Origin: Escherichia coli
Lineage (GTDB): Bacteria > Pseudomonadota > Gammaproteobacteria > Enterobacterales > Enterobacteriaceae
Assembly (NCBI RefSeq): GCF_003334815.1
Contig: NZ_QOWO01000006.1
DNA: 64,000 nucleotides
Reading direction: 5' to 3' (one strand)
Every line of letters begins with the position of its first letter. The stretch's first letter is position 1. Below are positions 31,202 through 36,223 of this stretch, piece after piece. Position numbers and translations under genes: made by a program. Below the pieces are notes generated by a model. The model was not told the DNA's origin. It made no database searches and saw nothing but the letters and a program-made list of their open reading frames with translations.

Positions 31202-32236
31202 ATGGCTTACTCTGTTCAAAAGTCGCGCCTGGCAAAGGTTGCGGGTGTTTCGCTTGTTTTATTACTCGCTGCCTGTAGTTCTGACTCACGCTATAAGCGT
31301 CAGGTCAGTGGTGATGAAGCCTACCTGGAAGCGGCACCGCTTGCGGAGCTTCATGCCCCGGCTGGAATGATTTTGCCGGTGACCTCCGGTGATTATGCAA
31401 TCCCGGTGACCAACGGTAGTGGTGCTGTCGGTAAGGCGCTGGACATTCGTCCACCAGCCCAGCCGCTGGCACTGGTTTCTGGCGCGCGTACCCAGTTCAC
31501 GGGCGATACCGCTTCATTGCTGGTGGAAAATGGTCGTGGCAATACTCTGTGGCCGCAGGTGGTTAGCGTGCTGCAGGCGAAAAACTACACCATCACCCAA
31601 CGTGATGATGCTGGTCAGACACTGACCACCGATTGGGTACAATGGAACCGTCTGGACGAAGACGAGCAGTATCGTGGTCGTTATCAAATCTCTGTTAAGC
31701 CGCAGGGTTATCAGCAGGCGGTTACGGTTAAACTGCTGAACCTGGAACAGGCGGGCAAACCGGTTGCAGACGCGGCTTCCATGCAGCGTTACAGCACGGA
31801 GATGATGAACGTTATTTCCGCCGGTCTGGATAAATCTGCCACTGACGCCGCGAACGCTGCGCAAAATCGTGCCTCCACCACTATGGACGTACAAAGTGCA
31901 GCTGATGACACCGGTTTACCAATGCTGGTCGTACGCGGGCCGTTCAATGTGGTTTGGCAACGTCTGCCAGCGGCGCTGGAAAAAGTGGGCATGAAAGTGA
32001 CCGACAGCACCCGTTCGCAGGGCAACATGGCCGTAACTTATAAGCCGCTGTCTGACAGCGACTGGCAGGAACTGGGCGCGAGCGATCCAGGCCTGGCATC
32101 CGGTGACTATAAACTGCAGGTTGGCGATTTAGATAACCGCAGCAGCCTACAGTTCATCGATCCGAAAGGTCATACTCTGACTCAGAGTCAGAACGACGCG
32201 CTGGTAGCTGTCTTCCAGGCTGCGTTTAGCAAGTAA
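31202..32236 (+). CDS. bamC: Outer-membrane protein assembly lipoprotein BamC (NlpB)
   Basis: ATG 31202 preceded by AGGGAG; [27 protein letters not shown] (lipobox LAAC), 344 aa. Confidence 0.93.
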
Positions 32237-32243
32237 AAATACA

Positions 32244-32270
32244 GGGCTGGAATCATCCGGCCCTTTTTTC
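32244..32270 (+). terminator. Rho-independent terminator after bamC
   Basis: GGGCTGG-aatcat-CCGGCCC followed by TTTTTT, 8 nt after the bamC stop. Confidence 0.65.
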
Positions 32271-32279
32271 TGATATGAT

Positions 32280-32295
32280 ACGCAAACGTGTGCGT
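32280..32295. promoter_or_regulatory. PurR operator (PUR box) of purC
   Basis: ACGCAAACGTGTGCGT, 15/16 match to the palindromic PUR box ACGCAAACGTTTGCGT, ~155 bp upstream of the purC ATG. Confidence 0.65.
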
Positions 32296-32340
32296 CTGCA
32301 GGAAAACGCGATTTTAGCGGTAATTCGCACGAAATTTGTT

Positions 32341-32385
<45 letters not shown>

Positions 32386-32448
32386 ACATCCGGCACACCA
32401 GACAGCAAAAGATTTTAAAACGTTAATTCACACCCAGGAGTGATAAAG

Positions 32449-33162
32449 ATGCAAAAGCAAGCTGAGTTGTATCGTGGTAAAGCGAAAACCGTATACAGCA
32501 CGGAAAACCCGGACCTGTTGGTGCTCGAATTCCGCAATGATACGTCAGCAGGGGATGGCGCGCGCATTGAGCAGTTTGATCGCAAAGGTATGGTGAACAA
32601 CAAGTTCAACTACTTCATTATGAGCAAACTGGCTGAAGCGGGTATCCCGACTCAAATGGAGCGTCTGCTCTCCGATACCGAATGTCTGGTGAAAAAGCTG
32701 GATATGGTGCCGGTTGAGTGTGTCGTGCGTAACCGTGCTGCTGGCTCTCTGGTGAAACGTCTTGGAATCGAAGAAGGTATTGAGCTGAACCCGCCGCTGT
32801 TCGATCTGTTCCTGAAAAACGACGCCATGCACGATCCGATGGTCAACGAATCTTACTGCGAAACCTTTGGCTGGGTGAGCAAAGAGAACCTGGCGCGTAT
32901 GAAAGAGCTGACCTACAAAGCGAACGACGTGCTGAAAAAACTGTTCGATGATGCTGGTCTGATTCTGGTCGACTTCAAGCTGGAATTTGGTCTGTACAAA
33001 GGCGAAGTGGTACTGGGTGATGAGTTCTCCCCGGACGGTAGCCGCCTGTGGGACAAAGAAACGCTGGAGAAAATGGACAAAGACCGTTTCCGCCAGAGCC
33101 TCGGTGGCCTGATCGAAGCCTATGAAGCCGTCGCCCGCCGCCTGGGTGTACAGCTGGACTGA
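32449..33162 (+). CDS. purC: SAICAR synthetase
   Basis: ATG 32449, [28 protein letters not shown]..., 237 aa. Confidence 0.95.
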
Positions 33163-33329
33163 TTTTTCTGTTCATCATCTTGCCGTGCAGCTGGCACGGC
33201 AAGACAACCGCTCTCGGAATATATGCATTGAACGCTCATTCCTCCGCCATTTCATCCCGCTTTCCTGTGGTAATCTTCCTCTGAACCACCTACGATCATT
33301 TCTATAATGAATATATTGTTGAGGTATCT

Positions 33330-34193
33330 ATGCGTTGGCAAGGGCGACGTGAAAGTGACAATGTTGAAGACAGGCGCAACAGCTCTGGTGGTCCATCTAT
33401 GGGCGGTCCCGGTTTTCGCCTGCCAAGCGGTAAAGGCGGGCTGATTTTACTGATAGTCGTGCTGGTTGCAGGCTACTATGGTGTTGATTTAACCGGGTTG
33501 ATGACCGGGCAGCCGGTTTCCCAACAACAATCAACGCGGTCAATTAGCCCAAATGAAGACGAAGCCGCAAAATTCACCTCGGTGATTCTGGCAACCACGG
33601 AAGACACCTGGGGACAACAGTTCGAGAAGATGGGTAAGACCTATCAGCAACCGAAGCTGGTCATGTACCGTGGAATGACGCGTACCGGCTGCGGGGCGGG
33701 CCAGTCCATAATGGGGCCGTTCTATTGCCCGGCGGATGGCACGGTTTATATCGATCTCTCCTTCTATGATGACATGAAAGACAAACTTGGCGCGGATGGC
33801 GATTTTGCCCAGGGGTACGTTATCGCCCATGAAGTCGGTCATCATGTGCAGAAACTGTTAGGCATCGAGCCGAAAGTTCGTCAACTGCAACAAAACGCGA
33901 CGCAGGCGGAAGTAAACCGCTTATCTGTGCGTATGGAACTCCAGGCCGACTGTTTTGCCGGTGTCTGGGGGCATAGTATGCAGCAGCAAGGCGTTCTGGA
34001 AACCGGCGATCTGGAAGAGGCGCTGAACGCGGCGCAGGCCATCGGCGATGACCGTTTACAACAGCAAAGTCAGGGGCGAGTAGTACCAGACAGTTTCACT
34101 CATGGCACTTCTCAGCAACGCTACAGCTGGTTTAAACGTGGTTTCGACAGCGGCGATCCGGCACAATGCAATACTTTTGGTAAAAGCATTTAA
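33330..34193 (+). CDS. ypfJ: Putative zinc metallopeptidase YpfJ (HExxH; function unknown)
   Basis: 287 aa; N-terminal TM helix ([16 protein letters not shown]); HExxH in [10 protein letters not shown]. Confidence 0.9.
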
Positions 34194-34207
34194 CTTCCGG
34201 GGCAGGG

Positions 34208-36223
34208 ATGGCTGAACTGACTGCGCTTCACACATTAACAGCGCAAATGAAACGTGAAGGGATCCGCCGCTTGCTGGTGTTGAGCGGGGAAGAGGGTTGG
34301 TGTTTTGAGCATACTCTTAAGTTGCGTGATGCCTTACCTGGCGACTGGCTGTGGATTTCGCCGCGGCCAGATGCTGAAAACCACTGTTCTCCCTCGGCAC
34401 TACAAACTTTACTTGGGCGCGAGTTCCGGCATGCGGTATTCGACGCCCGCCACGGCTTTGATGCCGCTGCCTTTGCCGCACTTAGCGGAACGTTGAAAGC
34501 GGGAAGCTGGCTGGTTTTGTTACTCCCTGTATGGGAAGAGTGGGAAAACCAACCTGATGCCGACTCGCTGCGCTGGAGTGATTGCCCTGACCCTATTGCG
34601 ACGCCGCATTTTGTCCAGCATCTCAAACGCGTACTTACGGCGGATAACGAGGCTATCCTCTGGCGGCAAAACCAGCCATTCTCGTTGGCGCATTTTACTC
34701 CCCGTACTGACTGGTACCCCGCGACTGGCGCACCACAACCAGAACAACAGCAACTCTTAAAGCAGCTAATGACCATGCCGCCGGGCGTGGCAGCGGTAAC
34801 GGCTGCGCGTGGGCGCGGTAAGTCGGCGTTGGCAGGGCAACTCATTTCTCGTATTGCGGGCAGAGCGATTGTCACCGCGCCCGCAAAAGCGTCAACGGAT
34901 GTACTGGCACAATTTGCGGGCGAGAAGTTTCGCTTTATTGCGCCGGATGCCTTGTTAGCCAGCGATGAGCAAGCCGACTGGCTGGTGGTCGATGAAGCCG
35001 CAGCCATACCTGCGCCATTGTTGCATCAACTGGTATCGCGTTTTCCTCGAACGTTGTTAACCACTACGGTGCAGGGCTACGAAGGCACCGGACGTGGTTT
35101 TTTGCTGAAATTTTGCGCTCGCTTTCCGCATTTACACCGTTTTGAACTGCAACAGCCGATCCGCTGGGCGCAGGGATGCCCGCTGGAAAAAATGGTCAGC
35201 GAGGCACTGGTTTTTGACGATGAAAACTTCACCCATACACCACAAGGCAATATTGTCATTTCCGCATTTGAACAGACGTTATGGCAAAGCGATCCAGAAA
35301 CGCCGTTAAAGGTTTATCAGCTCTTGTCTGGTGCGCACTATCGGACTTCGCCGCTGGATTTACGCCGGATGATGGATGCACCAGGGCAACATTTTTTACA
35401 GGCGGCTGGCGAAAACGAGATTGCCGGGGCGCTGTGGCTGGTGGATGAGGGTGGATTATCTCAACAACTCAGTCAGGCGGTATGGGCAGGTTTTCGTCGC
35501 CCGCGGGGTAATCTGGTGGCCCAGTCGCTGGCGGCGCACGGCAACAATCCACTGGCGGCGACATTGCGTGGACGGCGGGTCAGCCGGATAGCAGTTCATC
35601 CGGCTCGTCAGCGGGAAGGCACAGGGCGGCAACTTATTGCTGGTGCTTTGCAATATACGCAAGACCTCGACTATCTTTCGGTGAGTTTTGGTTACACCGG
35701 GGAGTTATGGCGTTTCTGGCAACGCTGCGGTTTTGTGCTGGTGCGGATGGGTAATCATCGGGAAGCCAGCAGCGGTTGCTATACGGCGATGGCGCTGTTA
35801 CCGATGAGTGATGCGGGTAAACAGCTGGCTGAACGTGAGCATTACCGTTTACGTCGCGATGCGCAAGCTCTCGCGCAGTGGAATGGCGAAACGCTTCCTG
35901 TTGATCCACTAAACGATGCCGTCCTTTCTGACGACGACTGGCTTGAACTGGCCGGTTTTGCTTTCGCTCATCGTCCGCTATTAACGTCGTTAGGTTGCTT
36001 ATTGCGTCTGTTACAAACCAGTGAACTGGCATTACCGGCGCTGCGTGGGCGTTTACAGAAAAACGCCAGTGATGCGCAGTTATGTACCACACTTAAACTT
36101 TCAGGCCGCAAGATGTTACTGGTCCGTCAGCGGGAAGAGGCCGCGCAGGCGCTGTTCGCACTTAATGATGTTCGCACTGAGCGTCTGCGCGATCGCATAA
36201 CGCAATGGCAATTATTTCACTGA
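34208..36223 (+). CDS. tmcA: tRNA(Met) cytidine acetyltransferase TmcA
   Basis: 671 aa; helicase-like P-loop (TAARGRGKSA) plus C-terminal GNAT-like region. Confidence 0.92.
   Translation: MAELTALHTLTAQMKREGIRRLLVLSGEEGWCFEHTLKLRDALPGDWLWISPRPDAENHCSPSALQTLLGREFRHAVFDARHGFDAAAFAALSGTLKAGSWLVLLLPVWEEWENQPDADSLRWSDCPDPIATPHFVQHLKRVLTADNEAILWRQNQPFSLAHFTPRTDWYPATGAPQPEQQQLLKQLMTMPPGVAAVTAARGRGKSALAGQLISRIAGRAIVTAPAKASTDVLAQFAGEKFRFIAPDALLASDEQADWLVVDEAAAIPAPLLHQLVSRFPRTLLTTTVQGYEGTGRGFLLKFCARFPHLHRFELQQPIRWAQGCPLEKMVSEALVFDDENFTHTPQGNIVISAFEQTLWQSDPETPLKVYQLLSGAHYRTSPLDLRRMMDAPGQHFLQAAGENEIAGALWLVDEGGLSQQLSQAVWAGFRRPRGNLVAQSLAAHGNNPLAATLRGRRVSRIAVHPARQREGTGRQLIAGALQYTQDLDYLSVSFGYTGELWRFWQRCGFVLVRMGNHREASSGCYTAMALLPMSDAGKQLAEREHYRLRRDAQALAQWNGETLPVDPLNDAVLSDDDWLELAGFAFAHRPLLTSLGCLLRLLQTSELALPALRGRLQKNASDAQLCTTLKLSGRKMLLVRQREEAAQALFALNDVRTERLRDRITQWQLFH

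Follow-up and report, generated by a model that had tools for sequence, protein, structure and literature searches.

A biochemically described relative of the protein considered here is KPN_02809 of Klebsiella pneumoniae MGH 78578. The purified enzyme hydrolyses succinyl-casein and has a Zn content of 1.2 per molecule; ethylenediaminetetraacetic acid (EDTA), 1,10-phenanthroline and dithiothreitol (DTT) inhibit it, phenylmethylsulfonyl fluoride (PMSF) is without effect, and its activity is lost in the mutants H171S and E172D (Wong et al., 2012; PMC3269727). In the same study the protein was modelled on a template of the M48 family at 11% identity (PMC3269727). Its orthologue in Escherichia coli is the product of ypfJ, which is found on the plus strand at positions 33330-34193 (ATG start, TAA stop, 287 aa) of a stretch of 64,000 nt, hereafter the window, from contig NZ_QOWO01000006.1 of the E. 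coli assembly GCF_003334815.1; all the features of ypfJ given below lie on the same strand. KPN_02809 (P0119, 291 aa) is 82% identical to YpfJ, carries the same HEVGHH motif, at residue 171, has four Cys as well and falls under the same family models, and its residues H171 and E172 correspond, once the numbering is checked, to H167 and E168 of YpfJ; the paper that describes it leaves out the hydrophobic helix, the localisation, the N-terminal tail and the natural substrate. A first interpretation of the window, made from its letters and referred to as the sequence-only reading, had presented YpfJ as a membrane-anchored HExxH protein. The identity of the gene and the limits and strand of its open reading frame (ORF) agree with the ORF list, Pfam (PF04228, E=9e-150), NCBIfam (NF050010) and the RefSeq annotation, and the HExxH sequence is indeed present, at residues 167-171. 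The absence of an assigned function, also claimed at that stage, is outdated, since Pfam, NCBIfam and RefSeq all have a name for the family and the Klebsiella orthologue is a Zn-dependent protease (PMC3269727).

YpfJ belongs to a large family. In the Pfam scan PF04228 (Zn_peptidase) covers its residues 1-283 with all 290 positions of the model (E=9.1e-150), and NF050010, the equivalog of NCBIfam for the "KPN_02809 family neutral zinc metallopeptidase", scores 380.2 bits (cutoff 250); the name of this model, Zn_HExGHH_YpfJ, describes the HEVGHH of YpfJ exactly. At E<=1e-3 the family comprises 10385 cluster representatives (50% identity), distributed among Gamma-, Beta- and Alphaproteobacteria, Cyanobacteria, Bacteroidota, Planctomycetota, Nitrospirota, Calditrichia and Actinobacteria. 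In E. coli the gene is universal: the DNA of the ypfJ region is 100% identical to that of K-12 MG1655 and was found in 5426/5426 complete genomes, where it is annotated as ypfJ and lies between purC and tmcA. We consider it likely that YpfJ is an active Zn metalloendopeptidase of the PF04228/KPN_02809 family, with a membrane-tethered extracytoplasmic domain and a stand-alone role, the vicinity of tmcA being a matter of gene order. A second proposal is more tentative and its chances are somewhat short of even: the 17-residue motif at the N-terminus would physically dock on the helix that backs the catalytic domain, despite the presence between the two of a hydrophobic helix that complies with the positive-inside rule.

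The predicted active site of YpfJ comprises two short motifs. The first, HEVGHH (residues 167-172 in the translation of the ORF; 33828-33845), would provide the Zn ligands H167 and H171 and the general base E168, and the second, ELQAD (residues 203-207; 33936-33950), is the sole ExxxD of the protein and is located 31 residues past H171, within a predicted helix that spans residues 192-219. Among 106 homologues with 40-92% identity to YpfJ, H171 is invariant, H167, E168, G170 and H172 are each conserved in at least 90% of the sequences, and E203 and D207 reach 97% and 98%, respectively. The catalytic residues are retained also in those homologues that have other N-termini and lack the motif of the N-tail. 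Since metal ligands and general base are conserved, the family does not represent a degenerate, non-catalytic fold, and the loss of metal-binding residues in homologues, which the sequence-only reading had named as the observation that would speak for such a fold, is not seen: the ligands are conserved in at least 90% of the homologues and are kept in the motif-less variants too. That YpfJ is a catalytically dead protein built on an HExxH fold has thus next to no probability, also in view of the 82%-identical orthologue, which is active and loses its activity upon mutation of the HExxH (PMC3269727). For this enzyme the need for both the His and the Glu of HExxH has been shown, as has a Zn content of 1:1. 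Judging from motif and fold, H167, H171 and E203, the latter as third ligand, would hold the Zn and E168 would activate the water molecule; D207 may support a His ligand in the way known for the Asp of the ExxxD of thermolysin. Contacts with the transition state and the substrate may be made by the conserved T257-H258-G259 and R264.

Structure prediction, which had been suggested as a check on the sequence-only reading, was carried out with AlphaFold2 (AF2) on the family alignment. The resulting model is confident, with a predicted local distance difference test (pLDDT) of 87.6 and a predicted template modelling score (pTM) of 0.86, and it places HExxH and ExxxD on successive helices. The catalytic domain (residues 73-287; 33546-34190) consists, in this order, of a backing helix alpha1 (74-100), a sheet of five strands (109-142), the active-site helix with HEVGH (158-176) and the helix 192-219, which bears E203 and D207. 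A backing helix, a mixed sheet, an active-site helix and a glutamate helix make up the thermolysin-like layout, and all of them are found in the predicted fold. On this model YpfJ is best described as a distant gluzincin (clan MA, thermolysin-like) that forms a separate family. Gluzincins combine HExxH in the active-site helix with a Glu from a later helix as third ligand, which in M4 and M13 belongs to an ExxxD, and YpfJ has both elements. Thermolysin (M4) and neprilysin/PepO (M13) share about 10% identity with YpfJ and have no match with it at the level of Pfam or of the sequence; compared with the M13 enzymes YpfJ is much smaller, and both the motif of the N-tail and the hairpin C121-C133 are its own. 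No solved relative was found in the PDB, either by sequence search or with a profile of the 106 sequences.

Membership of the M48 family, which comprises BepA, HtpX and Ste24 (structure 3c37), was considered and is ruled out at the sequence level: PF01435 was not matched in the Pfam scan, PF04228 being the only family reported. YpfJ differs from the M48 peptidases also in that it has neither a tetratricopeptide repeat (TPR) domain nor a multi-span membrane domain. The same distinction applies to the other HExxH protease that the sequence-only reading had pointed out in the window, bepA (12510-13973, minus strand, 487 aa). The gene does carry the motif, as HEISH, but a relationship with YpfJ does not follow from it, because the alignment of the two proteins by hhalign is limited to 20 columns around HExxH (probability 26%).

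As for the cellular location, YpfJ contains a sole strongly hydrophobic stretch, the residues 36-54 (33435-33491; Kyte-Doolittle mean of 2.05 over 19 residues), a candidate signal-anchor. It is preceded by a linker rich in Gly and Arg (residues 18-35; 33381-33434), variable in length across the family and of low pLDDT, and it is followed by a polar tether (residues 55-72; 33492-33545) that measures 18-69 aa across the family and is modelled with a pLDDT of 50-70. This is the single N-terminal transmembrane helix of the sequence-only reading, which stands as a feature of the sequence; the simple bitopic topology that goes with it is in conflict, as discussed below, with covariation and with the AF2 model. 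Taken by itself, the segment looks like an ordinary bitopic anchor: there is one segment of spanning length and its N flank is the more positive. The segment obeys the positive-inside rule, with a mean of 2.5 Lys and Arg in the 15-residue N flank vs 0.42 in the C flank and an excess on the N side in 118/139 sequences; the whole N side of the helix, which measures 18-74 residues, has a mean net charge of +2.4. The helix was detected in 52/54 representatives with the strict motif (Kyte-Doolittle mean over 19 residues >=1.6) and in 259/260 proteins that bear the motif, among them every reliably sequenced one.

The four Cys residues of YpfJ (121, 133, 208 and 280) give further information on the compartment. 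C121 and C133, at the two ends of a hairpin encoded at 33690-33728, are both present in 105/106 sequences, and the sole exception lacks both; for C208 (codon 33951-33953) and C280 (codon 34167-34169), 81 sequences have the two, 24 have neither and just 1 has a single one. Covariation was measured as mutual information with average product correction (MI-APC) on 164 non-redundant sequences, that is on 22155 pairs, and 208-280, used as a disulfide control, is the top pair of all (z=13.2). These patterns fit two disulfides, C121-C133 and C208-C280, and the sensitivity of the Klebsiella enzyme to DTT is compatible with them, even if ambiguous. Moreover, in 100/120 relatives of the actinobacterial variant P0241 the N-tail and the helix are replaced by a lipoprotein signal with a lipobox. 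Given that Cys pairs are kept and lost together, that a subfamily is made of lipoproteins and that the charges around the helix accord with the positive-inside rule, the catalytic domain is probably extracytoplasmic. It would work there with its two disulfides in place, and YpfJ would be tethered to the inner membrane through the helix 36-54 and the flexible polar tether. In the actinobacterial subfamily (P0241, P0270-P0388; Pseudonocardiaceae, Streptosporangiaceae and Kutzneria) the lipoprotein signal peptide is followed by a tether rich in Pro, Ser and Thr. A different architecture is seen in P0247, a family representative of 597 aa, in which about 370 aa precede the catalytic domain and contain, by reading of the sequence, caspase-like motifs (…YFAGHGIE…LLDACRNNPF…).

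The feature of the family that fits least with this simple picture is the extreme N-terminus. Nearly all members open, exactly at Met1, with the motif M-[RK]-[WL]-x3-R-x-S-x-N-[VI]-E-D-R-R-G (residues 1-17 of YpfJ; 33330-33380), of which D14 is conserved in 97, R16 in 93 and S9 in 89 of the 106 sequences. In the AF2 model the residues 1-20 are docked on the catalytic domain with a pLDDT of 98/90 and form a strand at 12-15, the residues 30-70 having a pLDDT of about 50. The same docking is predicted for P0188, a homologue of 50% identity in which the linkers are much longer (pLDDT of the N-tail 92/92, strand at 13-15). Covariation, which is independent of AlphaFold2, points to the same contact: pairs between the N-tail and alpha1 hold the MI-APC ranks 2, 4, 5 and 6 among the 22155, directly after the pair that serves as disulfide control (7-88, z=10.8; 8-81, z=9.1; 3-85, z=9.0; 6-85, z=7.9), and the pairs 13-138, 7-92 and 11-91 are also high-scoring. 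The face of alpha1 formed by K81, V85, A88, E91 and D92 (33570-33605) co-evolves with the residues 3-8 and 11 of the N-tail, and the partners 81, 85, 88 and 92 all look to one side of the helix.

The pair 8-81 is particularly informative, as it behaves as a salt bridge whose charges are exchanged in evolution. The combination of residues is E-K 22 times, E-R 14, R-D 19, R-E 6 and K-D 5 times, and overall there are 67 complementary charge pairs against 3 clashes, when shuffling yields 31 +/- 4 for either kind. On a neighbour-joining tree for which only columns 101-287 were used, the orientation of the pair has switched independently at least 13 times, and the swap is replicated both in sequences derived from genomes (31 vs 0) and in cluster representatives (35 vs 3). 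When all the pairs of YpfJ were scanned, 7-92 and 8-81 proved to be the two best swapping salt bridges. Furthermore, the sequence T-E91-D92-x-W of alpha1 becomes D-A-Q-x-x-W in the subfamilies without N-tail, where E91 is changed into Q and D92 into a variable residue.

These data bear also on the position of the tail with respect to the active site. On its other face alpha1 carries T90, for which MI-APC shows covariation with V169 of HEVGH, and since the partners of the N-tail look away from T90, the tail is expected to clasp the backing helix on its outer side and not to plug the active-site cleft. In the mechanism proposed here, the first 17 residues would therefore form a clasp that packs on alpha1 from outside. 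In a search for catalytic positions that are conserved only in motif-bearing proteins, T90 was the only one to pass; the test is weak, because many of the "motif-less" sequences are fragments or have mis-called starts, and a clearer signal was given by the covarying positions and by the actinobacterial subfamily.

If a single helix crosses the membrane between N-tail and catalytic domain, the tail cannot be docked on a domain that is extracytoplasmic. One way out is that N-tail and catalytic domain are both periplasmic in at least one functional state, the helix being carried on a long loop between them, either as a releasable anchor or as a non-spanning or re-entrant one, and that the docking marks or stabilises this state. 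To our knowledge, the only precedent is that of the signal-arrest-release (SAR) endolysins, P1 Lyz and R21 of phage 21, in which an uncleaved export signal leaves the membrane and docks on the catalytic domain of a periplasmic enzyme. YpfJ is unrelated to them in sequence and chemistry, its helix is richer in Leu, Ile and Val and its N side is long and rich in Arg. We regard this arrangement as possible but doubtful. The docking of residues 1-20 in both YpfJ and P0188, the strength of the covariation between tail and alpha1 with its replicated charge swaps at 8-81, the replacement of E91 and D92 where the tail is missing and a Gly content of 25% in the hydrophobic segment across the family are all in its favour, but covariation reveals that a contact exists in some state and not the compartment in which it forms. 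The helix is strongly hydrophobic, and residues of the group G/A/S/T/C make up 29% of it in E. coli and 40% as family median, against about 60% in two SAR domains; a SAR-like composition is hence not clearly present, the helix being Gly-rich but less SAR-like than those of the phages. Moreover, the 5-7 Arg and Lys of the N side, arranged according to the positive-inside rule, argue against its translocation, and we know of no pathway for the export of both flanks of a single hydrophobic helix.

Two more conventional routes to the same arrangement were examined and rejected. A second transmembrane segment would put the N-tail outside, but a second hydrophobic stretch, short (11-14 aa), is present in only 13/260 homologues and absent from E. 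coli, which also counts against the periplasmic placement of both parts. A twin-arginine translocation (Tat) signal was discarded upon inspection, as Tat motifs have hydrophobic residues following the RR, and in the N-tail motif the RR is 1-57 residues away from the helix and no hydrophobic residues come after it. In a minority of homologues (P0124, P0192, P0200, P0211, P0234, L031 and L023) the main helix is preceded by a short hydrophobic stretch that contains Arg, for example VGLLLRLLPFLL, and by a basic loop; this stretch, which may represent either an interfacial helix or a weak initial span, bears on the topology.

Alternatively, the contact could be cytoplasmic and precede export, or follow a failed one, so that the N-tail would act as a safety catch or an aid in assembly, and insertion into the membrane would separate it from the domain and make activity dependent on topology. 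Such a clasp would reconcile the covariation with the positive-inside bias and with the periplasmic Cys pairs, and it agrees with the association of helix and motif in 259/260 proteins and with the lack of the motif in the exported lipoprotein variants. Nevertheless it is improbable: the tail seems to lie away from the active-site cleft, as the covariation of T90 with V169 suggests, a signal-anchor of this hydrophobicity is generally expected to insert co-translationally, and the Klebsiella enzyme purified with its N-tail was active (PMC3269727). Still less credible is a protein that faces the cytoplasm as a whole, with the helix as a monotopic anchor and the Cys pairs as a redox switch. The contact between tail and domain would then raise no problem of export, and the appearance of overexpressed ypfJ in a list from a screen for resistance to hypochlorous acid (HOCl) could be accommodated; on the other hand, two independent pairs of Cys are gained and lost as pairs, the lipoprotein subfamily has the same catalytic domain, charge is unevenly distributed on the two sides of the helix, and an unbroken hydrophobic helix of 19-22 residues is generally expected to span the bilayer. 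If the docking is real and occurs in the mature protein, it would imply a topology or a biogenesis not described so far, by means of a releasable signal-anchor as in the SAR endolysins or of a non-spanning anchor borne on a loop; if it takes place only in the cytoplasm, the family would possess a "topology-gated" intramolecular clasp.

Returning to YpfJ as an envelope-facing, membrane-tethered Zn metalloendopeptidase, several points weigh against this reading or limit it. A simple single span with the N-terminus in and the C-terminus out conflicts both with the docking of residues 1-20 in the AF2 model and with the strongest charge-swap covariation of the protein (7-92 and 8-81). The comparison of the model with the PDB by Foldseek yielded no significant match (best E=0.27), thermolysin and neprilysin/PepO included, at an identity of about 10% to solved gluzincins. 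The Klebsiella work used 1% Triton X-100 for lysis and a spin at 2000 g, and nowhere refers to the hydrophobic segment (PMC3269727). Casein is a generic substrate, and the phenotypes point to no role: a ypfJ insertion in Y. pestis left the expression of psaA unaffected, and E. coli ypfJ turns up in the literature only in lists from screens or predictions, among them the list of the HOCl-resistance screen cited above, where it was overexpressed. A search of the literature on ypfJ, PF04228, KPN_02809 and Rv2575 found no localisation, experimental topology, natural substrate or clear phenotype; Rv2575 and a "neutral zinc metallopeptidase" of S. suis, both of doubtful membership in the family, were left aside. 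The role that seems most likely is a turnover of envelope proteins or peptides with broad specificity, exerted by a stand-alone housekeeping gene without a conserved partner gene.

As it was originally posed, the case of ypfJ is an ordinary one that matters little: the gene is already named and conserved, its orthologue is biochemically characterised, and the sequence-only reading overstated both its novelty and the meaning of its neighbourhood with tmcA. What gives it weight is that, in a protease family of more than 10,000 sequence clusters present in many phyla, the natural substrate, the phenotype and a solved structure remain real gaps, and that N-tail and catalytic domain co-evolve in a manner at odds with the textbook topology of a single span. 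Behind this conflict there could be an uncommon mode of anchorage, release or control of an envelope protease, and the charge-swap pairs E8/K81 and R7/D92 make it directly testable in E. coli.

The neighbouring gene on the 3' side is tmcA (34208-36223, plus strand), identified as ORF and in the RefSeq annotation, which encodes the tRNA cytosine(34) acetyltransferase. The two genes are co-oriented and close, as the sequence-only reading had it, the gap being however of 14 nt (34194-34207, plus strand; CTTCCGGGGCAGGG) and not of 15. No terminator-like site was found in 34194-34207 and the purine-rich GGGGCAGGG stands just before the ATG of tmcA; for these reasons the co-transcription of the two genes, likewise suggested at that time, is probable, in E. 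coli as in Enterobacteriaceae and Erwinia generally. No transcript spanning the ypfJ-tmcA junction was found in the literature, in which only a "dapA-ypfJ operon" variant is mentioned.

The evolutionary depth of this arrangement was evaluated in 80 genome loci, 13 from Enterobacterales and 67 from other groups, by looking for tmcA within 6 kb. The order purC-ypfJ-tmcA is kept in 13/13 Enterobacterales loci, and neither tmcA nor purC occurs within 6 kb of the ypfJ homologue in any of the 67 others, which include Aeromonas and two Pasteurellaceae. Even within Enterobacterales the distance varies: Escherichia, Citrobacter, Enterobacter, Superficieibacter and Erwinia have a junction of between -1 and 15 nt and Acerihabitans one of about 490 nt, and in Yersinia, Rahnella and Providencia a gene for a membrane protein of 150 aa with multiple hydrophobic segments (MAALDPTLLILLVLAGLGIISHN...; 6986-7438 in locus L012, 6994-7446 in L015 and 7824-8276 in L013) is interposed, together with two further ORFs in Providencia. 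Because of this intervening gene, the tight junction of Enterobacteriaceae may be the product of a derived deletion.

Since the adjacency is confined to Enterobacterales, gene order argues for a lineage-specific inheritance and does not constitute evidence of a shared function. The link with tmcA implied by the sequence-only reading consequently loses its support, all the more with a gene interposed in Yersinia, Rahnella and Providencia. A functional coupling of YpfJ with TmcA, be it processing, regulation or a common pathway, might be suspected from the 14-nt spacer without terminator-like site and from the short junction in five enterobacterial genera, but it has a very slim chance: none of the 67 loci outside Enterobacterales has tmcA within 6 kb, though the protease spans many phyla, the junction is interrupted or wide in Yersinia, Rahnella, Providencia and Acerihabitans, and TmcA, as is established, acts on cytoplasmic tRNA, whereas the catalytic domain of YpfJ is probably extracytoplasmic.

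More generally, an all-against-all clustering of the ORFs in the 80 loci gave no neighbour conserved across phyla, only lineage-specific synteny. A cluster of neighbours from 14 loci was dismissed, as it consists of a spurious antisense ORF that overlaps ypfJ in GC-rich genomes. In 9 non-enterobacterial loci the ypfJ homologue has as a neighbour an ORF that resembles DEAD-box helicases (...TPIQAQAIPV...AQTGTGKT...), which in a Comamonas sp. (L036, 6984-8399) is directly downstream of it, and a metallophosphatase-like ORF recurs in 6 loci; both names come from reading the sequence. These neighbours, too, look like lineage-specific synteny.

Upstream of ypfJ, the alignment of 8 enterobacterial sequences shows two near-invariant blocks, the rest of the spacer between purC and ypfJ being divergent. 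The first block (33266-33275, plus strand) is GGTAATC within TGTGGTAATC and the second (33289-33298, plus strand) is CCTACGATCA, which is not repeated elsewhere in the window. Together (33266-33298) they could represent the promoter of ypfJ, with TGGTAA as -35 and TACGAT as -10 separated by 17 nt and a predicted transcription start near 33303-33305, or the site of a regulator; a scanner for consensus promoters returned nothing credible upstream of the gene. Transcription of ypfJ-tmcA would start at this conserved putative promoter, with read-through from dapA-bamC-purC as a supplement. Papers based on SMRT-Cappable-seq report the "dapA-ypfJ operon" variant mentioned above as resulting from read-through of the dapA-bamC terminator.

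The intergenic regions on this side of ypfJ contain some further elements. A strong terminator-like hairpin with a T-run is located directly after bamC, at 32243-32264, and matches the dapA-bamC terminator with condition-dependent read-through. At 33178-33204, 16 nt past the stop of purC, there is a hairpin with a perfect stem of 11 bp (centroid energy -20 kcal/mol, z=-3.3) and without T-run, which E. coli shares with E. albertii and which is missing from the aligned spacers of Citrobacter and Enterobacter; it may be a terminator-like element of purC or a small insertion. Finally, the scan of 32200-34400 with Rfam gave only a sub-threshold match of the naRNA4/REP type, upstream of purC. This corresponds to 32352-32396, in the spacer between bamC and purC (naRNA4, RF02564, 30.9 bits vs a gathering score of 59.5), and is probably an element of the repetitive extragenic palindromic (REP) type.

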